Origin: a virus
Lineage: Duplodnaviria; Caudoviricetes
Length of the DNA stretch: 64,000 nt
Strand: one strand, 5' to 3'
IMG/VR virus record: IMGVR_UViG_3300013382_000007
Coordinates: 32,001-96,000 of that record
This document shows, piece after piece, positions 9,777 to 58,770 of this stretch. How positions within the stretch are numbered: position 1 is the first letter of the stretch; every line of letters starts with the position of its first letter. Under the pieces are notes generated by a model that was not told where the DNA came from, made no database searches, and saw only the letters and a list, made by a program, of their open reading frames with translations. The position numbers were made by a program, and so were the translations under genes.

Positions 9777-9785
9777 TAATACAAT

Positions 9786-30742: not shown

Positions 30743-30755
30743 TTTTAAATAGGTT

Positions 30756-30785
30756 AAATGGGGTCGCAAATGCGACTCCATTTTT
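30756..30785 (+). terminator. Intrinsic terminator after the tail tube gene
   Basis: AAATGGGGTCGC-AAAT-GCGACTCCATTTTT. Confidence 0.8.
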
Positions 30786-30808
30786 GTTTATTATAAAGTA
30801 TGCTATTG

Positions 30809-30818
30809 GTAATAATAT
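30809..30818 (+). promoter_or_regulatory. Candidate phage late-promoter motif GTAATAW (also at 41079, 49540, 59217, 6784, 14201)
   Basis: Recurs just downstream of terminators, 45-50 nt before the next start codon, in four cases. Confidence 0.45.
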
Positions 30819-30857
30819 GATAGCTAAAACAAATCTAAAATAAGAACGGTAAAAATA

Positions 30858-33588: not shown

Positions 33589-33628
33589 CGCATAAATATA
33601 ATATAATAATCGGAGAGTTATATAATAT

Positions 33629-34108
33629 ATGAAACTTAATAGTATTAAAAATAGCAATCAGGATAATAATCAAGTAGAAGTAACAGAGGAATCTACTCCT
33701 ACCCTTAGTACACAGAAAGTAGAACCAGTAAAAGAGGATTTATCTGGACTCACATTAAATGAGAAGATAGAGTACTGGAAAAATAAATACAAGAAAATCT
33801 ACAGAACAATTATAGATGATACTACGTTTATCTGGAGAAGGCTCAATAGAAATGAATATGCTTCTGTTGCATTTGAGACATTCAGCGATAATAAAAAGCT
33901 AGACATGTTTGAAAAGCAATTCAGATTCTGTCAGTTCTGTGTATTGTATCCTGACAATGCAATAGAGATGATGAATGAAAGTGCAGGTATTGCTCCTGTC
34001 CTTGCTGATGAAATAGTATTTAAGAGCGGATTCAGCTCTATGTTTCCTAAGACTGAAGAAGTTACTTCTGCTGATGATCTTTCTGATGAAGATAGTGATA
34101 AGGAGTAA
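33629..34108 (+). CDS. Tail assembly chaperone-like protein A
   Basis: WKNKYKKIY...FIWRRLNRNEY...CVLYP...AGIAPVL; position between tube genes and the first giant gene. Confidence 0.65.
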   Translation: MKLNSIKNSNQDNNQVEVTEESTPTLSTQKVEPVKEDLSGLTLNEKIEYWKNKYKKIYRTIIDDTTFIWRRLNRNEYASVAFETFSDNKKLDMFEKQFRFCQFCVLYPDNAIEMMNESAGIAPVLADEIVFKSGFSSMFPKTEEVTSADDLSDEDSDKE

Positions 34109-34114
34109 TAGTCT

Positions 34115-34822
34115 ATGAAAATTAAAAACGCTTCTTCTGAAACTAAAGAGAAACAAGATAGTGAAGTTAGCTTATCTGAATTCATTGAGTCTATAGAAGA
34201 AAAGTATCGTGATTATTTTATAGATAAGGTCGATAATGAAGTATTCATCTATACCCCTATTGGTCGAAAAGATTGGATAGATATTTGTGAAAGAACAGAC
34301 TTGAATCAATTTAAAAAAGAAGAATTAATATGTTCTATTTGCACTATATATCCTAAAAATTATGATTTCACAGAATGTCTTGCTGGTATACCTACAGAAC
34401 TATCTAAGCTTATTATAGAACATTCCTATCTTAAAAAAGAAGATATGATTGATATGATCACATTCTATCGGAATGAAATGAATACTATAAACAATAATAT
34501 AACTTGTCTTATAAACGAAGCATTCCCTAATTATGATATTGAAGAAATAGAAAACTGGGGAATGGATCGCACCATTAAGTATTTTACAAGAGCGGAATGG
34601 AAGCTTACAAATCTTCGTGGTATGCCTCTGAAAGAGGATATTGTAACATTATTACAGCAATCAAATGGAAGTACGGCAAGTGATGATAGCACTAATATGA
34701 AAAGCGCTGATACAGCAGAAGTAGTAGATTCTGGTGCTAATCTGACTCCAGAACGACTTGCTGAACTCAAGGCTAAATTCCCAGATATAGACTGGGGTAA
34801 TCCAACTACTCATTTAAGATAA
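34115..34822 (+). CDS. Tail assembly chaperone-like protein B (paralog of A with extension)
   Basis: EKYRDYF...FIYTPIGRKDW...CTIYP...AGIPTEL mirrors protein A, followed by an IEEIENW extension. Confidence 0.65.
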   Translation: MKIKNASSETKEKQDSEVSLSEFIESIEEKYRDYFIDKVDNEVFIYTPIGRKDWIDICERTDLNQFKKEELICSICTIYPKNYDFTECLAGIPTELSKLIIEHSYLKKEDMIDMITFYRNEMNTINNNITCLINEAFPNYDIEEIENWGMDRTIKYFTRAEWKLTNLRGMPLKEDIVTLLQQSNGSTASDDSTNMKSADTAEVVDSGANLTPERLAELKAKFPDIDWGNPTTHLR

Positions 34823-34832
34823 AGGTATTTAT

Positions 34833-34878
34833 GCTTGCCAAATAATATTTAAGTATATTATTTAGGCAAGCTGTTTTT
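34833..34878 (+). terminator. Hairpin/terminator before the 2048-aa gene
   Basis: GCTTGCC-AAATAATAT...ATATTATTT-A-GGCAAGC followed by TGTTTTT. Confidence 0.6.
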
Positions 34879-34886
34879 ATATAAAT

Positions 34887-37800: not shown

Positions 37801-40800
37801 ATGTATCTGTATATGGATCATCAGATGAAAAATGGAAACATTCTTGGATACCAACGCCAAGACATCCATTCTCTACCCTTACTGCATTAATGGATCCATA
37901 CTGGCTTGAAGAAAAACATTATGAGGACAGACCTTATCCTGTAACTGGCAAGCTATTTGAAGAAGGAACTCCCTGGGGCGCAGTCTTAAATCCTACTATA
38001 GGCAATCTGATTAAACCTCAGAAAAGAATGCATCAAGATGTTCTACAAGGAACAACCATTGATGTACGAGCTCTTATTCGCAAATATAATGAGGATGAGA
38101 AAAATAAATCTGATGCCAATAGTTATGTACAAATAGGTGGATATAATGGTGTATCCACAGTTAAAAGACCAGAATCTTCATATGGTGTTCCTGGAGAAGG
38201 CTTTGCGCCTGATTATGATGTATATTATGATACATCTAATACTGCATATTATACTCCTGTATCTGGAAATGGTTCTGGTGGTGAAGGTGCCTCTATTTAT
38301 GATAATAGCAGTATGTCTAATATGACTGGCTATTATGGCCAAGTTGCAAGCGACATATCTGCATATGATAAACTCAGAGCATCCAGTAATCCAATTGCTT
38401 TTGCAGCATCAAGAGTTATTCCGCTTGATCAGATATCTATGATAAATAGTGCTACTAAGCAAAAGAGTAGGAATAAGATATCTGGATATGCTCCATCTGG
38501 CTTTATACAAGATAGTGGAGCTTATTATACAGAAGGTGGCCCATCGTTTGATCCTCTGGCAAAACAGTTTGATAAAAATGATTTTATCGAATCACGATCT
38601 GTGGAAGAATGGCTCAGAGATGCTTCATACTCTGCAAAAGAACTTGGTGGTATATATGGTTTCGCAGTAGACTTAGCATTCCCTGCTCAACATAAATATA
38701 TAGAAGCAAATGCTGGCGCAATGGCTTCATTCTCTGGTAGATTCTGGGATGAAAATGTCGGCGGCTATGGTGGAGACATCATGGAAATCGCAAGACGATT
38801 CTTCCCTCATGAAGATCATTCTGTTACTAAAATTAATAATATACAGAATACGATGCCCGAATGGATCCCCGAGCGTTTTCATTACTCAGACCCGTACACA
38901 TCACTACCCAAAGGCGACATGAGACTTCCTGGTCCAGGTTATGAAACTCTGAATGAATTACACCCTGATTCCTACGGGATTTACGGCAGTTTTGATAGAT
39001 TCAAAATCTTAGCAGATATCGCTCCTTGGTCACAAGAATATAAACAATGGCACAGAATAGTTAAGCAACAGAATTTAAGTCCTGAAATGCAGGATGAAAT
39101 CAAAGAGATAGAAGATAGAGTTAAGCGCCAAAATTCAAGACACACATTCTATAATAAAAACTACGATATAGAAACAGAAGATATAAATGGTACTGTTTCT
39201 GAAGTTGGCAAAGATAATACCTTTAAACTATATGGTTCAGATAAGGTATATTCTGTTGCAGGAGTAGATTTAAGAAGTGGTCAGGAATTAAGTCAATTTT
39301 TAACTGCTGGTTCTGATGTTAAACTTACTGTTGATAAAAAAGATTTAAATAATGATGTAACAGGTGCTATTGTATATGATTATTCTAATAGTGGAGCTAA
39401 TGTTACAAGATCAATAATTGAAGCTGATGCTGGAACAATTAATAGAGACACATCAATTGGAGTACAAGCATATTCTGATGGCTTCTCTGTTTTAAATGCG
39501 CTTGGTGAATCTGTCGCGCATGCTCCTATTCCATTCATACATAATAAATTCTTAAGAGTGAATACTCCTATGGAAGCCTGGGAAGAAGAAGAACTATATG
39601 GAACATCATATTCTACTTGGAATCATCCTGTAGAAGGCTATATAAAACCAGCTATAAGAAAAACTATGGCAATGACTCCAATGGCTATCGTAGCTAATGT
39701 CGCATTGACTGGAATATCTAAGTATATTGATAGTACAGATGCAAGTGATCTTATAAAAGCCGGTGCTAAATCTGCTGAAGCATTAACTAATCCATTGGCA
39801 TTCGCAGGTGGTATGGCTTCTTCCCTTCTCACCATGAATACAAAATATACTAAGCTTGGTGTAGATATAGGAGAAGCGATAGGTCTTGGAGTATTAGCAT
39901 ATAAGAGTGCAGATAATCCTATTTTATCTACAATAACTGGTACTGCTATAGGAGCTACATTTGGCGCGCAATTCTTTAAAACTACTCATGTTAAAGGAGC
40001 TGAAGTAGGAGCTCTTGTTGGACTAGGTATATCAGCTCTCAAAAATGCTTATTTTGACAAAGATGAGATGTTTGGAGACTATGTGCCTGAGGATGCTCAA
40101 AAACGTTGGGATATGCAAGAATACTTTGATAGACTCAAATATATAAAGTATTCAGGATTATATGAAGAAGCTGCTCGTCAAGCAAAAGAAAAAGAAGGAG
40201 TAGACATTAAATCTATCCTTAATAGAATGGAATATGCGGAAGAAGAAAATAAAGAGCTCCAACAAAAGCTGTTAAAGTATAGAAACAATATTCAAAATAA
40301 CTCATTCTTATCTTATTCTGAACGTCAAGAAGCATTAAGTAACATAGAAGGTAAATTAGCTCAAATAAAATATAATAACGATAGTGTAGTCATTGAAGGT
40401 GGAGAATACACTAAAGCTGCTATAGCTTATAAAAAGGCTGCTGAATCTACTATTTATGGTCTTCAAGATGATGCAGGATGGTCAGAGATATTAAAAGCAT
40501 TGCCCAAAAACCATAGAGACTTCTTTATGGAGTTTGCTAAAGAAACTGATGAAGATAAACGTAATGAGATACGCTCAAAAGTTTCTGATTACGAAGGTAA
40601 GGTTCTCGACCTTGTTTGGAATGAAAAGAAATCCAAAATAGAAGACAATGCAGAATATTTTACAGATCATTATCTTCCTAATATGTCCTGGGTTGGTTGG
40701 AAACCAGACACAAGCCTTGACAATGTGCAAATGAAGACAATAGAAAATGAAGGTATGCTGCTTTCTGACTTTGGTTTCTATGATTCAAATCTTGAAGAAT

Positions 40801-41040: not shown

Positions 41041-41072
41041 AAGGTAGTGTAAATAGTTACACTACCTTTATT
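41041..41072 (+). terminator. Intrinsic terminator
   Basis: AAGGTAGTGTAA-ATAG-TTACACTACCTT followed by TATT. Confidence 0.75.
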
Positions 41073-41126
41073 CTGTCGGTAATATATTAGTATATTATAA
41101 ATGTTTCTTTGAGAGGATAATTTTTA

Positions 41127-44100
41127 GTGAAACGATCAAATAAAGTTAGATATAAAAAATATTCTTTACAAAATATACAGGAGCAATCTGCTCAGACTCA
41201 AAAAAATACATTTGATGTATTTAGCGACATAACAAGAGATATTTACAATGCTCGTATGGATCGTTTTATTACAAATGGATCTACAGAGCATTCTCTTATT
41301 ATACAACAAAGAAGATTTGATGCTGTATCGGTTTCTCCTGCTTCTGATAATTTATTAAAAGGACTTATAGGTCTTACGTTACCTAAGACAAATACTCCTT
41401 CTAATCTTATGCATTCTACAGTAAATAGAGCTGTTAAATACACGTATCAAAAGACTCCATATAGAAATAACCTATATGAATTCAATCAGTCTTTGGATGC
41501 TCTCAAAAAAGCTGTGAATACTGGCAATGCAACTGCTTATATATTTGACCTTGAAACTGTAACTGGTAAGAATGCAAAGAATAAAGAGCATTATACTGCA
41601 ATAACAGAATTATCTATAAAGAGCGCTACATTAGGTTCTGATGGTAAATTTCTTGAGACTACCGGAGATTCTATTGAAGGAATCATTGGATTCAACGCTG
41701 AACAAGAAGGCAATGTCAGAAACATGCTCGGAGATTATCTTTCCGGTAAAAGGAAAATTGATCCGAAAAGAATGTCTGAAGAGCAAAGAGTTGCTTTTAC
41801 AGAAATTCTTAACTTTGATTATGCATTTCAGAATGGCGGAGTATCTTCATCTGCTGAAATAACTGGTGGAGGTTTTAGACTTTATAAAACCAAATCCAAA
41901 TTGTCAAGAGAAGAGTTAGATGCAAGAGTTAAATCCATGTCACAGGGCGATCTTATTCAAGCGCTTGACAGAGGTATCTCTAAGCTTCGTGAAGTACATG
42001 ACAATTCTGATGCAGATATGGCGTTGCAAGAATATGCAAAAAGACTTCAGTCTGTTGATGGTAAGAATATATTTGCTGTTGGTGCTAATATACGCCAATA
42101 TGATATTAATGTATCGAGAGCATTAGGTTTGCTTAATGGCGATCCAACAAGAAATGGTATTATAGATATCACTGAGCTTGCACAGCATCACAATGCACTT
42201 ACTGGAAGTTCTACTCGTGCAGGAGCACAACAGTCTAATGTATTTAAGCAATTAGGATTATCATTACCTAATGGCATGGTTCCTCATATTGCATCAACAG
42301 ATACATATATGTCACTCGGAATCTTAAATAAGACCCTTGATCAAGGTGGATGGATAGATCAGAATTTAGCAGCTGGTGACAAAAGGCCAAAATCTGAATT
42401 TAAAATAGGTGGTATATATCGTGCCGGAGATACTGTTGATGCCCCAATATCTTTTGGTAGAGGAAAAGATGGCACAATAATATCTTCTACTGGTTATACT
42501 TATGATCCATTAAATAAGAATCATCAGTTACGAAGAAATTATGGTTACAGTTTTGGACTTCAGAAAGATATGTCCTATGAGCTTACCGGACATGAAGTAT
42601 TAGACATATCTCAATTATCTGAAGAACAAAAAACAAGTTTCAGAGAAATGGCTGGCGATAAATATCTTGGCAGTAAAAATCTGCATGTAGTTACTATGGC
42701 TCCTATACTTGATGCATCAGACCCAGAATATACTACTGAATCATTTACAAGAACCATTATACTTGGTGAGCAGGATTTTCAATCAGCTATAGGTTCATTA
42801 GAACATGTAGGTAATACAAAAATTTCTAAAGATGGTAAAAAGGCAAATATATTTTTTGCTGGCTATAAACCATCTGATATGAAGAATGGATCTACTATAG
42901 AAACTCATAACCTTGAAAGTACTGTAAGATCTTTTGAAGACAATCCATTCAAAATGCTTTCAAGCATGCATTCATATACATCTACTGATGTTGCTCATAA
43001 AGAACTAGTAGATCAATTGTCTTCTGCCATCGCCACAGGAGATCAAAAGCAAATAGATTTTGTAAGGTCAGAACTCGCAAAATCTATGCATGCATTCTAT
43101 GCTAAGAAGAATAATGGTATAGAGTTAACTGGTAAGATGGCAATGCATGCAGAAAGTTTTGCTAATATGTCTGAGCTTGTTCCAGTATTTAAGGACTATA
43201 TGCGAACTGAGCATGGTATATCTGATGTTACTGATTATACTGAAACATTTAATCAAGCCATTAAATCCTTTGTAGAAAATCTGACTATTCAGCCTAAAAA
43301 TAGTGGGTATACCGGTCAAAGACCTATTAATGTAGGACACATGGTTAAATCCAAGCCAGTTACCGGTGATGTTCTTACGTTTAATATAAGTGGCATAACC
43401 AGAGATACAGCGCAGCATGGTTCTATGACTCTTAATTTTAATGACTATAGAGGAGAAAATAGATATAAGCTTGCTGAAAGATTATGGAATGCTTCTGGAT
43501 ATAAAGCATCAGACTTTAAAGATACTGATGAATATAAAAAGGTTCAATTACTTAAAAACTTTACTGAATCTCTAATAGACGAAGATTCATATTCTGGAGT
43601 AAAGACTGCTGGATCAGGAATTAAAAAGAATCAAGCTGTATTAGATAAATTAGTCAATGCAGGTATATTAAGCTTTAATTCTGAATCTTTTGTCTATGGT
43701 GTATCAGATATATTTGATGGAGATGTTTCTGCATCGCAACTTATTGATAGAATAAGTGGATCAATACCTGATGAAACCATAAAATATCTTAAAGATACGC
43801 AAGACAAGAGTTCTGTATTATCTACCATGATATATGACGCTCTTAAAGAGAGCGGAGTCAGAACAACGAGCGCAGAAACAAGAATGTTACCTGAACTTAG
43901 GCCAGAAGAAACGTTTTTGTTTTGGGGACAAAATGCCGCAGTAACAAGAGTTAGATCAATGGATCAGGCTAAGGATCTATTTAAAAAAACGCTTGAGGCA
44001 ACCCCAATAATCCGTACAGTTCCTGCGTCTCATGCACTATCAAAAGACCAGAAAAAAACTACTATTAATAGTATGATGTCTGCTCTTGTAGATGAAGAAA

Positions 44101-47100
44101 TCGATCCTATTCATGGTTCTAAATTTGCAAACTTCTTATCTACCAGAGGATTTACTCAAGAAGAGATATCTAGAAAAGCTATTACAATTGGTGATACTAT
44201 AAGTGAATATCAAGACTATCTTAGTCATTTAGTATCAGCGTATAGCGAAGCCGGACTTGACTTCTCTATCACAGATAATGGAATTTATGCAAGAGATTCT
44301 GCATCAAAATACGTAAAGCTTAATCTACCTGAAATCAGAAGATATGATAATGGTACTGTATACATTAAATATGGCGGACAGGATGTAGCCATAGAATCAA
44401 GTGCCGTAATACATGATGGTAAAATTAAAATCCGTTCTCCATTCAGTAACAGAACTGGTAAGGCTATTAATAACTCTAATCGTACTATTGCCGAAAGTGA
44501 ACGTCTTGGAAATAAAGTGACTATAGAAACTCTCACACATCAAATACAAGAAGACTTCAGATATAATCTGGCTCAAGCTGGTGAAGCATTCCATGAAACA
44601 TCTTCTAATAGGTTTACGTCTGGTGGAACACTTAATGTAGTCGATATTGTTAGCAATATGTTTGGTGGACAAGGAAGTCTTGAATCAATTGGTGCATTAG
44701 GAAACTTTGCCTCAACAAACCCAACTGATTTCAGACGCATGAAAGATCTGTTTACAGAATTCAGACAAAACAATGCTGATAAACCAATTGATAACATACC
44801 AAGTATAGGACAAAAGTTCTATGAGTTATTTACAGCCAATGCTCCTACAATATTTAATTCAATAGCTGAATCAGGTGCTGTTGCAGACGATAGTGTTCGA
44901 AATATATTTGCAAGTCTCGCTCCATTCGCAACACAAGAAAAAACTATGGCGGGTGGATCTTATTTTATAGGAACACCAAGATATTCAACAGCCATGAGCG
45001 GTTTCTTCAATCAGAAACGTAATACCGGTTTCCAAAATGCTAAATCACCTATGAGTATGTCTGCCGAAAAACTTACTTCTATTGATGGTGTCCGTACTGG
45101 TAGAACTATTGAAACTGAAGAAATGATTAAGGCATTTTCTGGCAACACTGAGACAGTTGATTCTGTAAGAATAAAAATGGCTCATATGAATCAACGTGAA
45201 GTATATGACCGAATAGAAAAATATATTGATTCAGGTGCTATAAAAACTATTAAAGATGGTTATAGCGAAGATACAACTAAAGCAGCATTAGGTGTTTTAT
45301 TAGCAAGTAACGTTGAGAATGATGGCGCATTTGTTTCTGGCGAGCTTGCCAGAGCATTACCTCAAGCTAATGTCAATACAAAATCAATCGATCTTACAAG
45401 AGTCAATTTTAATGGTATAAGGTCTAAAAACAAAGAAGATGTTATAAAAGGTAGAGATATGATTCCTCAATTCTCTATCGATCCTAATAGTGGTGCTGTA
45501 ACAATAGAATACTCTAAGAGTTTCTTTGTTAAACAGGGTGAGAATCTTGTTATGCTTGAAAAAGATAAAACCTTAGCTGCGCAAATGACTACTACATACA
45601 CTACAGCCCAAAAGGATTACATTGCTTCTATAAGATATTTCAACGAAAATGGAGTAGAATTGTCCGAGAGACAAATAAATCAAGCACTTGCCGCATTAAA
45701 ACTGGATCCTGCTCTTTATGGAATGAATAATCAAGAAGTAAATGATGCAGTCAGCAAGATGCTTAAATCAAAAGGAATCACATCTACACTTAAATTAAAT
45801 CCTATTGATGTTGCAACCAAAATAGGTTATGGTGAAGAAAAAACATTTGCAACTCCATTACTTTTGGCATTTGGTGGAACACAAGTACAGAAGGATATTC
45901 TAGCTAAATATTCTGAGAAAGACAAGCGTGGTATTCTTGGTAGCGCTTCTGGTCATATTTTGAGTCAGGATGCATTTGATGTTATAGCAAACTATGTTGG
46001 TATGTCTAATGAAGATGTTAAGATAATGCAGCGTGAAATGCTTGCACCTACTATGTTTTGGAAAGGTGCATTAAAGGGCACAAGTGCAGCAGATGCATTA
46101 CTCTTTACTAATATCAACGAAGTTAAACACCAGAGTATATCTGATTCTGTTGCTATTATGACTCAGGACATAATAGATACATACAAAGATGACCCAGATA
46201 AAATAAATGCTATATTAAAAAAGGTTTATGGAGATAGTGCCATCTATGATCCTAAAAGACAATCTGCGCTCATAAGTAGTAATCTTGATTATATTAATAT
46301 GGATGAACTTACAAAGGCATATAAAACAATTTCTCGTAAATCTGGAGATATAGCAACAAGTACTGTATCTATTATTTCTGCTGATGACTGGAAAGCAGGA
46401 AAAGTTACTGGTAGTATAGCTAAAGATTTAGCACAAGTCAAACAGGCTTATCTTAACGGTGACATATCTTCTGATGAAGCAAGTAGAATGCAAGACCAGA
46501 TAAGACAAAGATATGCTCAAGATTATCGCATGGAAGGCACTAAGCTTAGTCAACAGGAAAAGAATATCTTTGGAACATATAAATATAATGATAATACTTT
46601 GTCTTCTTTTATCGGCGCAGAATCTGATGATGAATTTATATCCAGCACTCAAAAAGCTCTTGAACAACGTGGCATATTGTCAAAAACAGATGGATTATAT
46701 GCATTAACAGACCAGTATAGTAAGAATACTGAACCGATTTATTCTGGTACTTATGCAGCAATAGATAAAATAATGAAGAATGGATATGATTATGAAATAT
46801 CTACCAATCCATTAGGTATCGCTGACAGAAAATATCAGGCTAAGGAAATTATTGATGATTATCGACATAATATAGAACCAATAAACAATACTGATAATTT
46901 TGTTCTTAAAGAGGATCTAATTAAAAAGAGCGGCATAAATACCGTCTCTGCATCTCAAATGGCTATACCTACTGGAGATATAGCAACAGAGATGCTAAAA
47001 GATCCAAATAATCCATTTACTCATGATACAGTTATTGATCTTGGAGAAAGATTTAGCAATGATAGGTATCTTGCTGTAAAAGGATTAAACCCTAAATTCT

Positions 47101-49475
47101 ATGATGACACATTAATTAAAACTCAATATCAAAAAGAATTTTCTTCGCTTAGAAGAGAATCAGAAATGTTATCTGCATTAGATGAAGATAAGCTTGATAG
47201 AAGAATTATAGATAGTCGTTTTAGTGGGCGTAATCTTACTAAGTCGGAAATGCAACAGGAATTACAGCAGAGTATTCTTTCGCATAAGCAAAATATACTT
47301 GCACAGCAAGCAAATCTGCTCGGCGGCAAAAACTCAGTTGCAGCCTCTATAATGTCTGAACGTGCAGATATGAGTGCGATGCTTGAGTCTCAGACTGCTA
47401 CTATACCAATTGGTAGTAAGATGGAAAGCCTATATGATAATTTATCTTTTGAAGGTACATCAATTAAAGAGCATGTAAGCAAAGGTCATTATATAGATTT
47501 TGCTGTTGTAAACCCTGATGACATAAAACAAATGGGCATATTAGATAATGCCGATGAATATGTTGATTATCTAAAGAAAGACCGATCTGATTTTTATAAT
47601 ACGCTAATGGGACAAGTAGGACAAGATGCATCAAATGAAGATATAATGATGCAGGCTATGAGAACAGAAGGTATTAATATGTATGCCGGACGTTATCCTA
47701 CTGTTCATGAGCATAGTGTTATGGGTGTCAGAATGTATGCAAGTGATGATGTCCAAAGAAACACCATAAGGCTTCCACAGTGGACTCAGAAGAAAATGAA
47801 GAACGATAATGACTCAGACAAAGTCAGTGTCTTTAATATCTCTGAGGACTTTATGCAATCGCAGCAAGTAGATACTACAAACATTGCTATCCAATCTGCT
47901 GAAAATAAGACAATCGGAGATAAAGTAATTCAAGATTATATGGAAGGCAGGAGCAGTGACAACTTTGATCCGACTATCGCTGCAAGAGAACGTATGGTAT
48001 TTGGTCATGCATACAGAAATATTGCAGACTCATCTGAATATAATGATGTTCAGAATCAGATTAATCAAAGCCAGTATAGAAATGATTTTATTGATTTGTA
48101 TTCTAAGGCACAGAGTGCAGCTAATCCTAAAGAAGGATCTTATGCAGATGACATTTTTGCAGAGTTAGTTCAGCAAAGACAAAGTGACCAAGGATATGAT
48201 GCGAACTTTGCATATGAAATGAAAAGTCTATACATAGGTAAGCATCGTATGGATGAATCTCTTGTTGCAGAGATAGCACAGTCTAGTAAGGGTAAGGTCG
48301 GTTTTATAAACAATGCAGTAAGTACTTATACTAAAATAGGCGATCAGTTTACAACTGGCATGATAGGTCAAGTTGGAGACGATGCTGAACAAAAACTCAG
48401 ATATGAAGCTGCCAATGAATTGTTTAAAAAACAACGTGGAGACTTGATAGAAAATATTATCAATGCAAAGAATACTGCTGGTGCTGACCAATTAACCATA
48501 GTTTCAGATATGATAAACAATATGGGGATCATAGAAGGAGAATATAATAAAGATAAGGTTGGTATAGCTAAAGAAAAGCTTGCTGGTATCATAGATACTG
48601 CCATTGGTAGTAAGTATGAAGACTATATTGCTAGTTCCGCTGATACCGGTACATCTATAGCGAAGTATTTAACAAGTCAAGGATTTGACATAAATGATAA
48701 GAGTCAAATGCCCGAAATGCGAGCAGCTCTAGCAAATCTAGGTGTCGATGTTATGTCTGAAACTTCTCGTAGAGCTAATATTGACTTTATGCATAGGTCA
48801 AAAGTTGGAATATCTGCGTCTGGTGGTTATTATATTGATAATATCGATCTTAGAACTACTTCTGACAATGGACTTACATATAGTATAGATTATGATATGA
48901 CATTGCGTGATAGAGAGCCTAAGCGTGTTTCGCAGCAGTTTATTGAAAATAATGGCGACGCTATAATGCATACAGCGAAAATAGATACAGAATCAATTGC
49001 TAAAGAAGCATCTGAAAACGTTGCCAAAACAACTTCATCTATGGCATCTGGCAGCACTGCTAAAGTATTATCTCAAGCTATGAAAAACAATGTAAGTAAA
49101 AACATTGCTTTAGGTGCTCTTGGTGTTGCAGCATCTGTTCTTGCAGTTGGAATTATTGGCGGCAATCCATCTCATGCTCCACAAGATGATGCACAATCTG
49201 TTCCCAAAGACGCTTATAGATATGATAACTTTGATTATGGCACTGGTACTGTTATACAGTCGCCTCCAATGCAAAATCAAGGATATGTTGTTAATATGAG
49301 GGCATCTACAAATGGTTCTTATAGTGAAGCTCAAAGAAACATGGTTCAATCTGCTCAACAAAGTTATAGCGTTCCTGGTGGTAATATGAGTGTGTCTGTA
49401 AGACATAACTTCTCTTATTCTGCTAATCAGAATAATGATAAGTATATCGAAGGAATTCTTAATAGATTAATGTAA
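41127..49475 (+). CDS. 2782-aa putative single-subunit two-barrel RNA polymerase (virion RNAP candidate) with N-terminal DEDDh exonuclease
   Basis: GTG after GAGAGGA. DEDDh motifs: FDLET, [14 protein letters not shown]. Beta-like: [19 protein letters not shown]. Beta'-like: LLGGK..[46 protein letters not shown]. C-terminal hydrophobic helix. Confidence 0.75.
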   Translation: [2782 protein letters not shown]

Positions 49476-49584: not shown

Positions 49585-52500
49585 ATGTCCGAAAATAAAT
49601 CGATTCTTTCATATTTATATAATCATAATTATAATGAAATAGATCCAAGTAATTTCGTGCTTCCCACTACGAAAGACTTCCATTCTACTGAATTACCATA
49701 TAAATTAGAACAACAATTAGAAGCTGGCAAAGATAACGACTTTACCAGAATGCTATATTTTATAGAGAAGCCGTATTCTGAATGTCCAGGATATTATGAT
49801 GAAGACAGAGTTATTATAGTCAAAGGTAAACCTAATCTTCGTGGTGAAGATATAGGTAAGTTCGATGCCGATACTATGTACTTCCCTGTCAGTGATTTGA
49901 ATGACAATAATGCTAAGATTTCTTATAATGGAAATCTTTTTACTGTCAAAGAGTATCTGCAATATTCAAGTGCGAATTTTGGAGATGCATCTGAAATTGG
50001 CGTCCGTTTTATTGGTATAAATGCACCTGAGACATTTAAGTATAAAATAGTACTTGCTACAGATTCTGGCATTCCTCAGAAAATAAAAATTGCTGAAATA
50101 GCAAAAGATTCAAAACATCAATATCTCTACGATACAGAGTCTGATGATTATAAAAATGATACTATGAAATTCTTCTATAAGAATATAGATGGTATGTATT
50201 ATTATTGTCAGGCTACTGAATATCCTGATTATTCTGTTCCTCATACAGATACTGACGGCTCTATATACTATACAACAGAGTTAGCTTATAAATATATTTA
50301 TAAATCTGCTGATGCTAATGGAAGCAAAATAAGCCATGAGATGGCGCAAAAAATGATTGAGCTTATAGGAGATAATGAATGTGTCCTTATGCTTGATCAT
50401 AATATGCTTAATTCTAAATCTGGCAGTTATCCCACTACTTATGATCAATATGATGATTCATTGCTTGGTACAATAAAAAGTACTATAGAGTCATTGAGCT
50501 CAGTAAACTCTGGCCCTAAATATTCTGGATTTTCTGGATTCGGGCAAGACGGTTATGGACGTTTTCTTGGATGTCTATATGTTAAAACTCTTATTCCTGG
50601 ACTACCAGAATCAATACAAAACAGTATCGGAGAACAATGGATTAATGTAACTAAATATCTCTTATACTTCTATGGGCCTGATGGAACTGTCAATCATGAT
50701 TTGAGTCTATCTTTTAATGAGTATTCTCCTACTCACGTAGCAAATTATAACTTTGCTTCCAGTGCCTTTAAGGTATGGACATATGATAATAGTAAGAAGC
50801 GTATAGAAGATATGCTTGATAATGCGTCTTTTGATAGTATTACAAGACAAAGAGAAATTCAGAAGCAGGTTTTAGGATTCGACTTTAATACACAGTTAAA
50901 AGACTGGACAGTTATGATTGGCGATTATGTTTTCTTAATCCCTCCCACTTCTATAAGATGCATGACTCGTAATAGTTCTGAAGCTGTGCCACTGATCAGA
51001 TCTCGTGGATCTGCAATTAAAGAGACTCCACAAAGCGAGCGAATGCTTGAAATGACTCTGTATTTTAATGATGAGTCGGGTATTAATGGAATTGAGATAG
51101 AAGTACCAGCTACAGAAGATGGCGAAGATCGCAGAATGGATGAGAATACTTTAGCTCCTACTGATGAGAAGCTTAAGTATTACATGAATGGTCTCAGAGC
51201 ACTTATATCTATGTTTAAGTTCTGCCCATTCCTTCCTATTACAAATGAATATATTAATAATACTCTCAATATAGAAGCAGTAGCTCTATCCAGTCTTTAT
51301 ATATCTACGGTTCCTAATTTTCCTAAGTGTATAGCTGCTACTATCCAACTTGTTGAATTTAATTATCATGCATATATGTCTGAGATTCCTCTTACCGGAG
51401 ATGAATCTGCTGAGACTATTATGTATAGTAATTTATTTGAAAAATGTATTGATTTTGATGCTCTGAGATACTATTATCAAAAACCTTTATATCGTGGCGA
51501 ACTAGCATCCAGATATTCATTTGACTCTCCAGAATACCTTAACCTAACATACGGTGGGCGCACCGCATTACAGCCTATGACATTTGATGATTCTTCTATT
51601 GAGTTTTATATGCCTGATAGTAATCATCTTAATACCTTACTTCAAGTTAAGATGGAGTCTATGAGCAGACCAATTAAATCACAATATAAAGTTACTGATG
51701 ATGTAAAAGCATGGGCTGCTGAACTTGGCAAATTATATCCAATATTACAAAATGCAAAATCAACTAAACAATATATTGATTTATATAACTTTATAAATTA
51801 TGGACCAACAGATAAAAATAAAAATCCAATATTTGACTCAGTTGCTGTAACTCGCGATAATGACTTTTTATTTACATTAGAAGATATTAACAAACATGAA
51901 CCGTCAGTCAAATATGAAGATCTCGCAAAAACGTGGGATCAATTGACTTATAGTTCTTACTATTCTGATATCTTTAATGAAGGTCTAAATCCTGATAATC
52001 CATATCAATTTTCTATAAATAACTCATATATAAAAAAATATTACATAGATTCTGGATTGAGATGGAAAACAGGAGACGGTTCATTATATTTTATCTATAT
52101 AAATTATATTGACATAATTCGTGATATTTTTGTTATGTATAATAATGATATTATAAATACATATACTTATACAGGCGAGTCGATAAATATCACAACAAGA
52201 CAAGGATTACAAACCAATAAAAACAATATAATTAATTTCTTAAAAAATATTTCTATTGATCTTGATAAAAATTATTCTAATTACTTCAATGATAATGGAG
52301 AATTCAAAATCGATTTATTTACATCAGTAGATTCTGATAATCATTTTGCATTTGATTTTGAAAATGCAGATTCCTACAAATTAATAGAATATTGTTTTAA
52401 TTATTATACTATTGGTTCAGAAGATAAAACTCAGTTTGAATTACCTTCAGATGTAATGCAAACTACTGTAAATAATATTAAAGAAGATATAGATCTTGAC

Positions 52501-55500
52501 ACAGAAAATTCGTTTAAGTTTATAAAATATCCAAATGAATCTATGCTACAAAGTCTTATCGTAACTAATATATCTGCTTCATTTAATAATAACCTCACAA
52601 GAACATATTTAAAAGCTATGGATGGTTATGCTCCACAGTACTTAGGTGGTCAAGATACTGTTATAGAATTATCTATGCAGACGCAAGATGATGCCGCTGT
52701 TGCTGCCATTAATCTACTTCCTAAATTGTGTTCTGAGTATATGCGCAATTATAGACTTATACTTTCATGTTGCCCATTACGAATCAATACAGCATTTACT
52801 AAGATGCTTGGTGTTAATGAAGTATTGATTGAAAGTGTAAATGTATCTACTGTAGAGAATCAACCTGGAGTATATCAGATAGATATGCGCCTTATTGCAA
52901 TGGATAGAACTGTACGTAATAAAGAGGCGTTAAAGCGCCTTGATATAAATAATGCTGGCGCTGAAACAATAAACTCTAGGCAAAGTTATACAACCAGAGA
53001 CTATTTTGGATTAAAAGAAAAAATATCTGCCGCAGAGATATATCCTGATCTTGAATTACCAACAATAGCAGAGCTTGATATTTATGGGTTTACATATATA
53101 AAATATAAGATATATGATACATATCGTATATATCCTGATCCTGATTTCTATTTTGTTTATGGCGCAGCCACTACTAATAAAACAATCCGTGACTCTGTAT
53201 TAGATAGTCTTGAAGAGAATTCAAATAATAGACCTACGACATTTACTATGGCTGATTATCTTGGTGGAGAATTAAGCGTCGATTTGACACAAGATGGTTC
53301 TGCTGAACAATTTAATGTTAATTCACGTAATCAGACTGCTACAGCAGAAGAAAATCTCGTATCTGAAAATCAAGATGCAATCAATAATTATAAAAATGAA
53401 ATTTATAATCTCAAGATTAAAAACGGCTCTGTATTTGAAACTATATATAATGGACAATCATTAAATACATTTCTTGACGCAAGTCATGGATTTTCTTCTG
53501 TTGATGATGTATATAGCTTTATCAATATAATTAGCAATCTAAAAAATGATAACTATTGGAACTTCTCATCAAAACAGAAATGTATTTTCAGAGGTAATCT
53601 AAAAACATCTAATTCCGAATATTTAGGCTTCTTTAATTATATATATAAATGCAATGACATTATTACATTTTTAACTCAAAACAATCCGGATTATAATTAT
53701 AACACATCTGACTATTTCTCGAAAATATGTAATAAAACAGATTTCAATTCTATAGATGAAACAATTGATAAAATTAATAATGCCAACAAATCCACGCTCT
53801 CTGCTACAAACAGCACATGTAGATCAAGAATAGATGGTGTTCTTAGAGAATGTTTTTTGGATGGTAATTTCCCAGATAATTCATCTTCTATATCTGAACC
53901 AACCATATTCTTTAAACCCAATACTTACAATACATATGGATCAACAAAAAATTATGTTAGCAATAATAGTGTCGATGATGTTGTTAAATCTATAAAGTCT
54001 ATAGCAGATGCTTTCACCGGTTTAAATCAGTATGTGGACATTGATGACAAGACTAAACCTGATGCTTGGCAATTCAATATGTTTTGTGGATCTGATGACA
54101 ATAAAAAGCCTATTTATTTATCAAAGAATAATAGCTGCAATACATTAAGCGATATTATAAATTCTTCATATTCGTTTGGGCCATTCCATATTAGACAATA
54201 TCCAGGCAATTATATTAAACAGCATTTTTATCTTGATAATGTAAATAATACAGAATCACAATACGCAAGACTTATAATGTCACTACAAGATGATAAGTAT
54301 TATTTTTTGAATCCAATTATAATGGATGCACAAATTAACTACTATTCAGACCCTTCTAATGTTGAAGCAAAAAAAATTATAGATGGATATAAACTTGGAT
54401 TATTATTTGATACAACTACAAATGCAATCGAAATAATTCTCAATCTTGCAATTTATTATCAATCATTAATTTATAATAATATACTGATTTCTGAAATTCA
54501 GTTGATTTGTGATGAGCTTGCTTCTACTGATCAGGCAGATACAATGAGTAGTATTGTTGATGAAAATCTGACTACTATATATGCATCTAAAGATTATTTA
54601 TCATTTAGTTATGAAAAGACAAACGAATGTACAGAAGAAATTTCTATCAAGAAAGATAATGTTGAGAAGTTATTCCAATTGCAATCCGAATATGAAGCTG
54701 CCATTGTTGGTAAATCAGATGATGAAATAAAGCAAATACAAAAATCTTTAGAAGCAGATGTTACATCATATTTAGATAGTGCAAAACAGGTTATTACCCA
54801 ATTTTTAAATACCTTACAAGATATATATTCTCAAATACATGCTGGCAATCTTCTTGCTGTCGAATCTTTATATATTAACGGTCTCGATAATAACATATAT
54901 AAATATGTAGAAAATAGAGACTATGATAAGCTTAATGATTTGTTTGTATCTTCTCAAATGCCTATTGCTTCTTCAGACAATATATTTTTATATAAGTACT
55001 TTTTATCATTAGCTGGTAGGGAGGTTATTAAATCAATAGAAGATCTAGGTTCTTCTGATTATGCTCCATCTGAAATAGCTAGTGGAATCATAGATGAAGT
55101 ATTCTATTTAAATCAAGTCAATGATCCATATACCTATACAAGAGATTCTTTCTATGATATGATAACAAATGATATGAGAGGTAGAATGGCGCGAGCATTC
55201 CCTGCATTCTATATGCTATTTGTTGATGAAGGTCGAGAAATAGGATTGTGGAAGCTCAATGACAATTTCTATAATATGTCTTCAATCAGTGAGATCACAA
55301 TAACTAAGTCAAGAAAAATAGCTGCTGATACTTGCACTATTCAAATGACTAATATGTTTAAGACATTCACCACTGATGATGAAGACGGCAAGGAAATGGC
55401 TTATGACCTTGAAACATTGTCTTCTATAGATAATAGTTTCCAAGACTTATGGGATTCTATATGGAGCCCCCGTAAGCTGTTTCTCAGAGAATATCAAGAG

Positions 55501-58500
55501 CGTATTGAGCAGAATCCGATAGAAAGAGCACAACTTAAGCCTGGTGTCAGAGTTCATGTGCGTATGGGTTATGGTGGCGATGCTTATTCCCTTCCTACCG
55601 TATTTAATGGAGTTGTTGCTCAAGTATCTACTGGTGAATTAGTTACTATCTTATGTCAAGGTGATGGTGTTGAACTCTCAAACCCTGTCAATGATGGAAT
55701 GAAATATTCTGATGATATCGAATCTTATGATGATTTCCCTATTATTGCAAAACAGATAGATGAATTCGTCTCAAGCGGTGCAACTCCAAAAACCATACTT
55801 ACTAAGTTCTTAACAACTAAAGGAACATGGGGACGTAAACTTATAAATACTATATCTTCTGGTAGATTCTTTAATGATAATCCATTTGGTATAACTCACT
55901 TTGGAGATCCTGATTATACAGATATATTTAACCTAAGTGAGTGTGCGCAAAACATTTATGAAGCATATAAAAGCCCTATGTTCAATAGTGGTGTAGAATC
56001 ATCTCTCACTCAAATGCAATATATGTACAATACAGACGATATTCCAAAAGTATCTACACAGATATCTGGAAAGTCATATTGGGATTTGATGCATGTTATG
56101 GCTGGAGTAGCTCCAGATTATATAGCCTCTGTAGCTCCATTTGGAATGAGAAGTACTATATTCTATGGATTGCCCCATTATTATTATGCTTATGAATATT
56201 ATAAGTCGAAAGATAATACTATCAAAGAAAAACGTAAGCCATTTCAACAGTATCATATTTATAGTTCATATAGTGATATCATAGAAAACAATATAACTAC
56301 TTCATCTGAATTCATGAAAACTAATGCTGTTGGTTTATATTCAGTTAGTGGTGCACTTGGTAATTTAACAGCTAAACGAGTTGGACCTGTATTTGCCGAT
56401 ATTGATATTTATTCTGAATATCAGAAATCAATGACTGTAGATACAACTTATGTCTCGAACTACAGTGGTTTGGGTGGTATTATAGGCAGTCTTATTCCAT
56501 TCGTAAATTCAATAAGAAATGATGCTGGTACTATCACTGGTACAGATAATGAGTCTATTGCATGGAGAATAACAGTAGCTGCTCTTAAAGATGCTGTTAA
56601 GGAAATGTATCAAGGTGAACTTATTACAATTGGAGATCCTTCTATCAAGCCATATGATGCTATATATCTGCATGATGTATATGAGAATATGCAAGGTGGA
56701 TGCGAAGTTGAAGCCGTAACTCATATACTCAATTCCCAAACCGGTTTCACATCAAGTATCTATGTTGATCCTATGGTAGATGTTGATAATAGATATTATC
56801 AAACTGCTCATATGCTTTCAAACTTTGTTTGTGGGCAATCAATTGGCGTATGGACTGCCGGACTTGTATTATCATTTTGTTTATCTCGCTCTACTCAGCC
56901 TGTTACTAAATTAGCTGGTAAATTATTAACTCGTGGCGTTGATGGTATGTCTACACAAGTCACTAATATACTTAATCTCCTTGATTTGAGTGATGATACT
57001 ACAGAGAAAATTGCCAACTTTATCAAAGGAACTAATATCTTAGGTACTTTAAATGCTACTTATCAGTATGAGAAAATAATTGATGCAGCAAAGATTCTTA
57101 AAGGTATCGATCTTAGTGGTCTTGCAAAGCTTGATAATGCTACAAAACTAACTCAGTATCTTAAGTGTATAGACCAGCTAAGTCAGCTTAATCTTGATGA
57201 TCTCTATACAATGGTTAGTAACAAGAAGACTTCTGATATATATTATAAGATTTATCAAGGACTTGCAGATGGTCTTAGTAATATGGAATCTACAAAGAAC
57301 TCTACAATCACCAATGCGATTATTGGATTATCTGAAAAATTCAGGCAGTCTGATGGGCTAAAAGAGCTCGCAAAAACCGATGCTAATGTAGCCGAATATC
57401 TTACACTGCTTGATAATATTGGATCTGCTGATTTTACAAAACCAGGAGTTACTCAAAAATATATTTCAGCAATCAACCAGCTTAAGACATTTAAAGAGGC
57501 TGATGATATAGGAGACTTTTTTGCCGGTTCTTCCGCTATTACAGATCTTGGTAAGGCATTTGATTCTATAGGCGACGGAGCTGAAGCTCTTGGTAAAGTT
57601 GCAAGCAACAGCGATGATATTACTAAAGCTCTTAATAAGACCTCGTTCCTTGTTACGAAAGGTAGCGTTGCTGCAACTATTGTTGGTCTTGTAGTTGAAT
57701 ATCTTGTCGAAGCAATCATAACTGGAACTGTTACAAATGCAATTACAAGATATCTTAGGAATCTTGAAGTATTAAGAATATATCCACTTATTAAAAATAA
57801 GAAAGTATATACTGCCGGACTCAGCGGTTCAAGAGGTTTGGTTGTAGGCTCATCTACATTTAATAAACAGGGTTGGTTCCAAAACTTTATTTCTGATTTC
57901 TTCAATAATAGTATATTCAGAGTTGTATCTTCTTTGATACTTCCAAATACAGATAATTGGTATCAGTATATTGATTCATGGAAACGCGACAATAATATGG
58001 CTCTATCTGATTCTGATGTCAATTATTCTAAATCTGTTGTTTTGAGCCATCTTAGTAAGGTTTCTGATGGTATGTCAAACTATGACGGTATACTTGCAAA
58101 CAGAATTACTCTTGAAAGAATCAAAACATTCAGTAATGACTCTGGAAGTAGATCAGAAATTGCTGATGCGCTTCAAGCTTTCTCCAATTACTATGTAAGT
58201 GACAAAGAATTTGAATACAATGGCAGACTTAATGAAATGAAAACACTTAAGGATCTTGCTTCATATCTTAAACAATCTAATGTTCCTGATGGAGTATTCT
58301 CATACTATCATTCAATACCAGAAAACGATCCAGAAGAAGTATCAGTTCATTATAACGATAGCATATTAACTTTAGAGTCTTATCATTCGCTGCCAAATTA
58401 TCCTGACTTAAATGACTATGCAATATTAAGCTGTGACTGTATTTGTATCCTTCATAATCTTATTCAATACTATTTGCCTAATCAGTATCCTAATTATATA

Positions 58501-58770
58501 ACTGATGATAATAAACAAATTAATATTTCAGTTGTAAATGCTCTTGTCCCCGGATATAGTAATTCATGGTTATCTACCGGATACCAATTTACTTTCTATA
58601 CAGAGAATATAGATCATGATACTTTAATAATGTTATTGGATCAAGAAAAGAAAGCATGCAACAATATCTTTGAATATGACTATACAGAAATGGCTGATGA
58701 TAATATATTGTATCGCATTACTGTTTATCCACCAAATACTAATAGTATAACGAATGGAGATAATGAGTAA
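49585..58770 (+). CDS. 3061-aa baseplate-hub-like protein with N-terminal staphylococcal-nuclease-like domain
   Basis: SNase motifs FDADT, VRFIGINAPET, DGYGRFLGCLYV; hub (gp27/gpD-like) motifs ADTCTIQMTN, LKPGVRVHVRMGYG..VFNGVV, IGDPSIKPYDAIYL..EVEAVTHIL..GFTSSI. Confidence 0.72.
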   Translation: MSENKSILSYLYNHNYNEIDPSNFVLPTTKDFHSTELPYKLEQQLEAGKDNDFTRMLYFIEKPYSECPGYYDEDRVIIVKGKPNLRGEDIGKFDADTMYFPVSDLNDNNAKISYNGNLFTVKEYLQYSSANFGDASEIGVRFIGINAPETFKYKIVLATDSGIPQKIKIAEIAKDSKHQYLYDTESDDYKNDTMKFFYKNIDGMYYYCQATEYPDYSVPHTDTDGSIYYTTELAYKYIYKSADANGSKISHEMAQKMIELIGDNECVLMLDHNMLNSKSGSYPTTYDQYDDSLLGTIKSTIESLSSVNSGPKYSGFSGFGQDGYGRFLGCLYVKTLIPGLPESIQNSIGEQWINVTKYLLYFYGPDGTVNHDLSLSFNEYSPTHVANYNFASSAFKVWTYDNSKKRIEDMLDNASFDSITRQREIQKQVLGFDFNTQLKDWTVMIGDYVFLIPPTSIRCMTRNSSEAVPLIRSRGSAIKETPQSERMLEMTLYFNDESGINGIEIEVPATEDGEDRRMDENTLAPTDEKLKYYMNGLRALISMFKFCPFLPITNEYINNTLNIEAVALSSLYISTVPNFPKCIAATIQLVEFNYHAYMSEIPLTGDESAETIMYSNLFEKCIDFDALRYYYQKPLYRGELASRYSFDSPEYLNLTYGGRTALQPMTFDDSSIEFYMPDSNHLNTLLQVKMESMSRPIKSQYKVTDDVKAWAAELGKLYPILQNAKSTKQYIDLYNFINYGPTDKNKNPIFDSVAVTRDNDFLFTLEDINKHEPSVKYEDLAKTWDQLTYSSYYSDIFNEGLNPDNPYQFSINNSYIKKYYIDSGLRWKTGDGSLYFIYINYIDIIRDIFVMYNNDIINTYTYTGESINITTRQGLQTNKNNIINFLKNISIDLDKNYSNYFNDNGEFKIDLFTSVDSDNHFAFDFENADSYKLIEYCFNYYTIGSEDKTQFELPSDVMQTTVNNIKEDIDLDTENSFKFIKYPNESMLQSLIVTNISASFNNNLTRTYLKAMDGYAPQYLGGQDTVIELSMQTQDDAAVAAINLLPKLCSEYMRNYRLILSCCPLRINTAFTKMLGVNEVLIESVNVSTVENQPGVYQIDMRLIAMDRTVRNKEALKRLDINNAGAETINSRQSYTTRDYFGLKEKISAAEIYPDLELPTIAELDIYGFTYIKYKIYDTYRIYPDPDFYFVYGAATTNKTIRDSVLDSLEENSNNRPTTFTMADYLGGELSVDLTQDGSAEQFNVNSRNQTATAEENLVSENQDAINNYKNEIYNLKIKNGSVFETIYNGQSLNTFLDASHGFSSVDDVYSFINIISNLKNDNYWNFSSKQKCIFRGNLKTSNSEYLGFFNYIYKCNDIITFLTQNNPDYNYNTSDYFSKICNKTDFNSIDETIDKINNANKSTLSATNSTCRSRIDGVLRECFLDGNFPDNSSSISEPTIFFKPNTYNTYGSTKNYVSNNSVDDVVKSIKSIADAFTGLNQYVDIDDKTKPDAWQFNMFCGSDDNKKPIYLSKNNSCNTLSDIINSSYSFGPFHIRQYPGNYIKQHFYLDNVNNTESQYARLIMSLQDDKYYFLNPIIMDAQINYYSDPSNVEAKKIIDGYKLGLLFDTTTNAIEIILNLAIYYQSLIYNNILISEIQLICDELASTDQADTMSSIVDENLTTIYASKDYLSFSYEKTNECTEEISIKKDNVEKLFQLQSEYEAAIVGKSDDEIKQIQKSLEADVTSYLDSAKQVITQFLNTLQDIYSQIHAGNLLAVESLYINGLDNNIYKYVENRDYDKLNDLFVSSQMPIASSDNIFLYKYFLSLAGREVIKSIEDLGSSDYAPSEIASGIIDEVFYLNQVNDPYTYTRDSFYDMITNDMRGRMARAFPAFYMLFVDEGREIGLWKLNDNFYNMSSISEITITKSRKIAADTCTIQMTNMFKTFTTDDEDGKEMAYDLETLSSIDNSFQDLWDSIWSPRKLFLREYQERIEQNPIERAQLKPGVRVHVRMGYGGDAYSLPTVFNGVVAQVSTGELVTILCQGDGVELSNPVNDGMKYSDDIESYDDFPIIAKQIDEFVSSGATPKTILTKFLTTKGTWGRKLINTISSGRFFNDNPFGITHFGDPDYTDIFNLSECAQNIYEAYKSPMFNSGVESSLTQMQYMYNTDDIPKVSTQISGKSYWDLMHVMAGVAPDYIASVAPFGMRSTIFYGLPHYYYAYEYYKSKDNTIKEKRKPFQQYHIYSSYSDIIENNITTSSEFMKTNAVGLYSVSGALGNLTAKRVGPVFADIDIYSEYQKSMTVDTTYVSNYSGLGGIIGSLIPFVNSIRNDAGTITGTDNESIAWRITVAALKDAVKEMYQGELITIGDPSIKPYDAIYLHDVYENMQGGCEVEAVTHILNSQTGFTSSIYVDPMVDVDNRYYQTAHMLSNFVCGQSIGVWTAGLVLSFCLSRSTQPVTKLAGKLLTRGVDGMSTQVTNILNLLDLSDDTTEKIANFIKGTNILGTLNATYQYEKIIDAAKILKGIDLSGLAKLDNATKLTQYLKCIDQLSQLNLDDLYTMVSNKKTSDIYYKIYQGLADGLSNMESTKNSTITNAIIGLSEKFRQSDGLKELAKTDANVAEYLTLLDNIGSADFTKPGVTQKYISAINQLKTFKEADDIGDFFAGSSAITDLGKAFDSIGDGAEALGKVASNSDDITKALNKTSFLVTKGSVAATIVGLVVEYLVEAIITGTVTNAITRYLRNLEVLRIYPLIKNKKVYTAGLSGSRGLVVGSSTFNKQGWFQNFISDFFNNSIFRVVSSLILPNTDNWYQYIDSWKRDNNMALSDSDVNYSKSVVLSHLSKVSDGMSNYDGILANRITLERIKTFSNDSGSRSEIADALQAFSNYYVSDKEFEYNGRLNEMKTLKDLASYLKQSNVPDGVFSYYHSIPENDPEEVSVHYNDSILTLESYHSLPNYPDLNDYAILSCDCICILHNLIQYYLPNQYPNYITDDNKQINISVVNALVPGYSNSWLSTGYQFTFYTENIDHDTLIMLLDQEKKACNNIFEYDYTEMADDNILYRITVYPPNTNSITNGDNE

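Follow-up and report, generated by a model that had tools for sequence, protein, structure and literature searches.

A candidate tail-delivered, single-chain RNA polymerase encoded among the giant tail genes of an uncultured contractile-tailed phage

Here, we describe a 2782-residue protein, encoded in the tail module of an uncultured phage of ~180 kb (Duplodnaviria; Caudoviricetes), whose core is in part supported, namely in its beta' half, as a strongly diverged version of the cellular RNA polymerase (RNAP) catalytic core. The gene lies in a stretch of 64,000 nucleotides (nt), referred to here as the window, which spans positions 32,001 to 96,000 of IMG/VR record IMGVR_UViG_3300013382_000007; the record searched comprises 114 kb and is 48% complete. 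We put at roughly 60% the probability that the protein is a tail-delivered, membrane-anchored, single-chain RNAP that starts phage transcription. From its N-terminus, it consists of an exonuclease-like domain, residues 400 to 1375, the RNAP-like core, a helical region, a predicted membrane helix, and a C-terminal domain (Table 1).

A preliminary description of the window, made from its letters, had singled out a series of RNAP-like motifs in this protein, and every one was found where it had been placed when the frame translation was checked. They comprise a beta-like motif, NVENDGAFVSGELA (residues 1395 to 1408, nt 45309), a two-lysine loop (K1565 at nt 45819 and K1572 at nt 45840), LLGGKNSV...SERADMSA (residues 2064 to 2084, nt 47316), an RxP...S motif likened to NRQPTLHRLSI (residues 2188 to 2198, nt 47688), an aspartate triad, DNDSD (D2227/D2229/D2231, nt 47805/47811/47817), and KGKVGFINNA (residues 2388 to 2397). 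All of these are invariant across 7 close relatives with 39 to 90% identity. The protein itself is without any match in Pfam, PHROGs, PDB sequences (phmmer), or 50,697 GenBank phage records (tblastn), and two distant relatives used as tblastn queries had no match in the GenBank phage records; its family is therefore annotated as hypothetical, structural, or tape measure. Relatives were recovered from metagenome collections, where 6 full-length homologues at 39 to 90% identity occur on contigs of up to ~180 kb. An exhaustive profile search with contig scans added distant members of 2700 to 2980 amino acids (aa), some on contigs of 190 to 300 kb, plus several fragments, and two further word-index homologue searches yielded almost no new members.

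Conservation across these distant members includes an RNAP-type motif. In an alignment of 13 sequences over residues 1375 to 2420 (alignment A5; 16 to 40% identity), 11 columns are invariant (N1920, D1971, K2068, D2124, G2182, R2189, P2191, S2197, D2227, D2229, and D2231), and 6 of them make up the pattern R-x-P-(5)-S-(29)-D-x-D-x-D. The spacing of this pattern, more fully R-x-P-x-x-H-x-x-S-(29)-D-x-D-x-D, is equal to that of NRQPSLHKMS...NADFDGD in Rpb1. A further five residues, K1565, E1571, K1572, N1662, and H1668, are at least 90% conserved among 12 to 13 relatives in the same identity range. The DxDxD proposed as the active site is thus kept among homologues, with all three aspartates fixed. 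Distant relatives carry DNDGD, DVDGD, NADHDGD, or DYDGD at these columns. The change of Gly to Ser in DxDGD, which had been called unusual, is not notable, given that the family alternates between the two residues and the crAss family has DFDID; the Ser is simply a variable position, because distant members carry Gly at that column.

Structure prediction places the triad in a barrel of the kind found in RNAP. An AlphaFold2 model built on alignment A5, with a predicted local distance difference test (pLDDT) score of 67.5 and a predicted template modeling (pTM) score of 0.33, shows residues 2081 to 2243 as a double-psi beta-barrel (DPBB) of beta' type; a first model from 6 sequences was too poor (pLDDT 51, every motif region below 50). 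In the model, DNDSD lies on the loop that links a short helix (QWTQKK) to a strand (KVSVFN), following the strand TIRLP, and this strand-helix-loop-strand element is the arrangement used by RNAP beta'. When the model was compared with 350,542 PDB chains using Foldseek, the best 50 matches were all RNAP chains of beta' type (E of ~1e-3), among them the plastid-encoded polymerase (PEP), the enzymes of Mycobacterium and E. coli, the non-virion RNAPs (nvRNAPs) of AR9 (probability 1.00) and PhiKZ, and Pol I. In BFVD, most of the named matches were RNAP subunits from jumbo phages, nudiviruses, and giant viruses, and the ESM Atlas gave only a weak lead, to a viral RNA-dependent RNA polymerase (RdRP) PF05183 cluster at 0.79. 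Sequence profiles point the same way: searched against 177,635 distinct PDB sequences, the A5 profile matched PhiKZ gp55, the N-terminal part of a beta' subunit, with an E value of 0.0023 and the largest subunit of Pol V with an E value of 0.43, and both alignments register on RyPtvhegS...DnDsD. The stretch upstream of the barrel matches the N-terminal ~500 residues of RNAP largest subunits, with an alignment that reaches ~160 residues upstream of the barrel. The motif K2388...A2397, within a long predicted helix, is a bridge-helix candidate, an assignment that is only a suggestion.

The beta-like half of the active site is approached through motif order and conservation. N-x-x-N-D-G (1395 to 1400), K1565-x6-K1572, and K1667-H1668 are colinear with E813/D814, K1065/K1073, and H1237 of beta, and distant members lie closer to the beta consensus, with FEQEAVMNARL and K-x7-K-G. 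The K1565-K1572 loop is modeled between two predicted strands; a complex prediction for the beta-like and beta'-like segments gave no verdict (score 0.00). From the sequence pattern, the two conserved lysines may be the beta-type part of the active site.

Gene gp034 of Bacillus phage vB_BauM_KLEB27-3 (2434 aa, deposited as “structural protein”) occupies the same slot and is, judging from sequence, a true homologue of the 2782-aa protein (hhalign probability 96%, E of 4e-9, 419 columns). It has NRYPTINQS...KADYDGD, with the canonical Gly in DYDGD where our protein has Ser, and its annotation is not that of a polymerase. The exonuclease profile of the family also matches it, with an E value of 2e-10 in a search of six sequences. 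The N-terminus of the family is, by its sequence motifs, a DEDDh exonuclease of the DnaQ, RNase T, and TREX1 kind. D141, E143, D326, H387, and D392 do not vary among the 10 full-length relatives examined, and the profile of the domain (A9) recovers TREX1 first among PDB sequences, with an E value of 0.0027 and an alignment on ExoII and ExoIII. No Pfam model matched the domain when 12 family members were scanned with hmmscan. We know of no characterized DPBB RNAP with a DEDDh exonuclease fusion.

Taken together, the features suggest a mechanism that we state conditionally. Residues ~1375 to 2450 would be related, as one very diverged chain, to the beta/beta' catalytic core of cellular-type RNAP; D2227/D2229/D2231 on the beta'-type barrel would hold the catalytic Mg2+, and the K1565/K1572 pair would contribute the beta-type side of the active site. 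The protein would be made with the tail proteins, be carried in the virion in or beside the tape-measure position, and be expelled upon infection through the contracted tail. Its C-terminal membrane helix may then hold it at the entry site, where the polymerase would transcribe the genes that enter first without recourse to the host RNAP; the N-terminal DEDDh exonuclease would be delivered along with it. What we infer here is the beta-like barrel, the activity as a polymerase, packaging and injection, and the role in early transcription; packaging and injection are proposed because of the gene position, the deposition of KLEB27-3 gp034 as a structural protein, and the C-terminal membrane helix. 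That helix and the GGNPS at its end are kept in every relative that reaches the C-terminus. On this analysis, the phage probably injects the protein to start its own transcription.

Table 1. Features of the gene, its protein product, and the two neighboring giant genes (positions in the window)
Feature	Position	Strand	Basis or remark
Whole gene, 2782 codons plus stop	41127..49475	+	Single open frame; full-length homologues have 2700 to 2980 aa
Ribosome-binding site GAGAGGA	41111..41117	+	9 nt upstream of the GTG start
Terminator-like hairpin, AAGGTAGTGTAA / TTACACTACCTT, T-rich tail	41041..41074	+	3' of the upstream 2048-codon gene; read from sequence
DEDDh 3'-5' exonuclease-like domain, residues ~130 to 400	41514..42326	+	ExoI D141/E143; ExoII N321/D326; ExoIII H387/D392
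Candidate beta-like half of active site, residues 1395 to 1668	45309..46130	+	N-x-x-N-D-G; K1565-x6-K1572; N1662...K1667-H1668; conservation
Region aligning with N-terminal part of RNAP largest subunits, residues 1921 to 2080	46887..47366	+	Invariant D1971 and K2068; R2079 just before the barrel
Predicted beta'-type double-psi beta-barrel with helical insertion, residues 2081 to 2243	47367..47855	+	Holds D2124, R2189-x-P-x-x-H-x-x-S2197, and the DNDSD loop
Predicted metal-binding loop D2227-N-D2229-S-D2231	47805..47819	+	Invariant in 13 sequences; hmmsearch alignment to NADFDGD of PhiKZ gp55 and Pol V
Bridge-helix candidate, long predicted helix, K2388-G-K-V-G2392-F-I-N-N-A	48288..48317	+	K2388 and G2392 invariant; local model confidence below 50
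Predicted transmembrane helix, residues 2656 to 2680	49092..49166	+	Hydropathy 2.3; ends in conserved GGNPS
Conserved C-terminal domain, GYVVNMRASTNGS ... YIEGILNRLM	49167..49472	+	Conservation; ~100 residues after the membrane helix
Upstream giant, 2048 aa, homologue of 0305phi8-36 gp145 and Moorella phage CDS0026	34887..41033	+	blastp E 6e-58 and 1e-53
Downstream giant, 3061 aa, homologue of 0305phi8-36 gp147, ME3 “baseplate hub,” and Moorella CDS0032	49585..58770	+	PHROG 20474 E 2e-178; blastp E 2e-96 and 2e-65

The gene is the middle one of three consecutive giant frames on the + strand, downstream of the terminase, portal, major capsid protein, and contractile-tail sheath genes and upstream of a baseplate-wedge gene. 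Its start codon is GTG; an AT-rich spacer followed by the strong ribosome-binding site (41080 to 41126) separates this start from the terminator-like hairpin. Hairpin, spacer, and ribosome-binding site together suggest that the gene may be its own transcription unit within the tail operon. Portal similarity groups the phage with Moorella phage MTATph1, Bacillus phages 0305phi8-36, KLEB27-3, and WH1, and Acinetobacter phage ME3. In 0305phi8-36, gp145 and gp146 are virion proteins by mass spectrometry according to the deposited record, and the 3061-aa giant of our phage carries a peptidoglycan-hydrolase-type region. With its two flanking giants, the protein makes up a conserved trio at the tape-measure/hub position, and the order giant, polymerase-like protein, giant, and ~124-aa protein is found again in relatives. 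The trio is not universal, because in a 253-kb relative (positions 1 to 10000), the polymerase gene does not directly follow a giant of ~2000 aa; proteins of 1240 and 1152 aa are encoded farther upstream. In one other relative (168-2913), the polymerase gene follows a gene for only 684 aa, which itself comes after one with a faint LAGLIDADG match; the upstream giant there may have been split or invaded by a homing element.

Placement next to a tape measure, as first described, did not hold up: no established tape measure flanks the gene, and in 0305phi8-36, it is the protein of the same slot, gp146, that is called “hypothetical tape measure.” The tape-measure position fits the 2782-aa protein, but the slot is shared by three giant genes, of which this one is modeled as rich in globular domains. 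The slot protein varies between phages, and three candidates from the slot were set aside as homologues. The 0305phi8-36 gp146 has no DxDxD and no credible hidden Markov model (HMM) match, and CDS0027 of MTATph1 (1309 aa) likewise lacks both and has only a DLET(T) exonuclease-like motif. ME3_36 (1603 aa, hypothetical; ME3 3172 to 7983) shows the RxP...S...DxDxD pattern (SREPAQGTMSS...GGDHDQD) but had no HMM match. In MTATph1 (30512 to 37868), an annotated transposase and three small open frames follow the slot protein before the hub gene, and an insertion element may have disrupted the slot gene. A piece of an uncharacterized ME3 protein is a BFVD structural match, with an E value of 4e-4.

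Neither a second RNAP, a paralogue, nor a sigma factor was found in the searched record or in two related records that are 82 to 87% complete. The Pfam models for RNAP, RdRP, DNA polymerases A and B, T7 RNAP, and sigma factors had no match in these three records, where the search for the T7 type was run without a positive control. When the 114-kb record was searched by k-mers for a promoter motif that recurs, only a coding tandem repeat of 69 bp emerged. This repeat, with at least 5 units in a coding frame at record positions 108650 to 109030, lies 12.6 kb past the end of the window, and its translated unit resembles a leucine-rich repeat.

Several observations weigh against reading the core as a working polymerase. 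Model confidence is low, with a pLDDT of ~56 at the catalytic loop, below 50 at the bridge-helix candidate, and a pTM of 0.33 overall. The Pfam RNAP models (RNA_pol_Rpb1_2, RNA_pol_Rpb2_6, and RdRP PF05183) were unmatched in hmmscan of 12 members and in six-frame searches of the record, and in hhalign runs, neither the crAss gp66 family, aligned from six members, nor E. coli beta' was matched with significance (P of 0.11 to 0.26), although the motif fell in the right register. The slot protein gp146 is without DxDxD, and the structural role of the slot therefore needs no polymerase. The two-barrel, single-chain RNAP first proposed is supported in its beta' half, for which the barrel with its invariant DxDxD, the RNAP-only fold neighbors among the best 50, and the PhiKZ gp55 sequence match speak. 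Its other half fared differently, as a beta-type barrel was unmatched in the fold searches, the PDB profile search (A8), the ESM Atlas search, and hhalign against E. coli beta. Fold matches skip the beta-like region because the fold lists are saturated by the beta'-type barrel.

Some of these observations would suit a protein with a structural role in the tail or in ejection, one that resembles a tape measure or forms a channel, in which a polymerase-derived domain no longer polymerizes and only binds DNA or fills the tail lumen. The slot is that of gp146, the protein has a transmembrane helix and a long helical C-terminal part, and the beta-like barrel was left unconfirmed by the searches. 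We consider it unlikely, however, given that the Asp triad, R2189, P2191, S2197, K2068, K1565, and K1572 are fixed at 16 to 20% identity, a pattern typical of a working active site and not of a relic. The barrel might also belong to the peptidoglycan-cleaving DPBB proteins (RlpA, MltA-3D, or expansin type) that occur in many tail lysins, but this lytic-transglycosylase reading was rejected as very improbable: neither DPBB_1 nor 3D of Pfam matched even at an E value of 10, the 50 best Foldseek matches were all RNAP chains, with an alignment that continues ~160 residues upstream into the beta' N-terminal region, a contiguous DxDxD with RxP is not a lytic-enzyme motif, and the neighboring 3061-aa protein already has a lysin-type region.

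Other alternatives accept an active enzyme and change its task. A two-barrel polymerase might serve as an RdRP, a primase-like enzyme, or a DNA polymerase proofread by the DEDDh exonuclease; PolD is a two-barrel catalytic subunit paired with an exonuclease. DEDDh exonucleases usually go with DNA polymerases, the domain is family-wide with a TREX1-like profile, and the 114-kb, 48%-complete record showed no DNA polymerase of family A or B. Yet the fold neighbors are RNAP beta' chains, PolD is absent among the 50 matches listed per search, contiguous DxDxD with RxP...S is an RNAP signature, a tail-module position is hard to square with a replicase, and the relative ME3 has its own DNA polymerase, all of which makes this task improbable. 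We give similarly little credence to an unpackaged RNAP that is made late and acts in the infected cell, for example, on late genes. The terminator-like hairpin before the gene would allow transcription separate from that of the upstream gene, but synteny between two virion-protein homologues is kept across very divergent phages, the KLEB27-3 homologue was deposited as a structural protein, and a membrane anchor has no obvious use in a cytoplasmic transcriptase. The tail-delivered, membrane-anchored RNAP, by analogy with P23-45 gp96 (PMC10770324), is our preferred reading.

Injected RNAPs have so far been shown only for a few unrelated phages, namely N4-like phages, crAss-like phages, jumbo phages of the PhiKZ/AR9 type, and, as a tape-measure fusion, Thermus phage P23-45, and they let a phage bypass host transcription control and some defenses. 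An injected RNAP in a giant tail-module protein is thus a kind of system already known. In the literature searched, we found no description of this family, of the DEDDh fusion, of an occurrence in contractile-tailed phages, or of the cellular-type affinity. If our reading is correct, the injected-RNAP strategy extends to contractile-tailed phages related to 0305phi8-36, with a new architecture of exonuclease, fused beta/beta'-like core, and membrane anchor, and the family is another very deep branch of the two-barrel polymerase tree. More tentatively, and with doubts outweighing our confidence, a widespread, unrecognized contractile-tailed lineage (~150 to 300 kb, 0305phi8-36 related) might deliver through its tail a membrane-anchored, single-chain, cellular-type RNAP with a built-in DEDDh 3'-5' exonuclease. 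No earlier transcriptase would then be known to carry, in fused form, a nuclease for proofreading or for the trimming of transcripts or DNA, and transcription would be coupled to DNA entry at the tail tip. The homologue in the cultured Bacillus phage KLEB27-3 makes the idea open to bench work.

Among known systems, Thermus phage P23-45 joins its virion RNAP to the tape measure in one protein, gp96 (PDB 8H2M/8H2N) (Chaban et al. 2024, PMC10770324). In this siphovirus, the RNAP makes up the N-terminal part of gp96, which has no exonuclease and continues into a tape measure of ~3800 residues with a metallopeptidase; a paralogous RNAP that is not in the virion is encoded as well (PMC10770324). Here, in contrast, the tail is contractile, the core is internal with a DEDDh exonuclease ahead of it, and the searches showed neither a paralogue nor sequence homology between gp96 and the 2782-aa protein. 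The virion RNAP of coliphage N4, gp50, is a giant polymerase that is ejected with two other ejection proteins and transcribes early genes. It is a functional analogue only, with a T7-like right-hand fold that is unrelated to the DPBB and storage in a podovirus capsid.

The crAss-like phage phi14:2 gp66 is reportedly a giant virion-associated single-chain RNAP (Drobysheva et al. 2021). It resembles our protein in DxDxD-K (DFDIDK there, DNDSDK here), in the RxPT...S strand, in TIxLP before the loop, and in its neighboring giant genes; unlike our protein, it is podoviral and without an exonuclease. It is absent among the 50 matches listed in each fold search, and its hhalign result, given above, was not significant; of the RNAPs that could be detected, beta' chains of the cellular type and of jumbo phages come nearest. 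Cellular-type beta' and the split jumbo-phage forms (PhiKZ gp55 and the beta' N-half of AR9 nvRNAP) are the closest neighbors in both structure and sequence, with RxPTxxxxS ... NADxDGD at equal spacing and a distance from the K loop to DxDxD of ~730 residues across E. coli beta-beta', compared with ~655 here. They differ in having two to five subunits in place of one chain, DFDGD in place of DNDSD, and domains that Pfam detects, whereas here, exonuclease and membrane anchor are fused to the core and the gene lies among tail genes. Although extremely diverged from both, the family seems closer to cellular-type beta' than it is to the group of crAss, YonO, and QDE-1.

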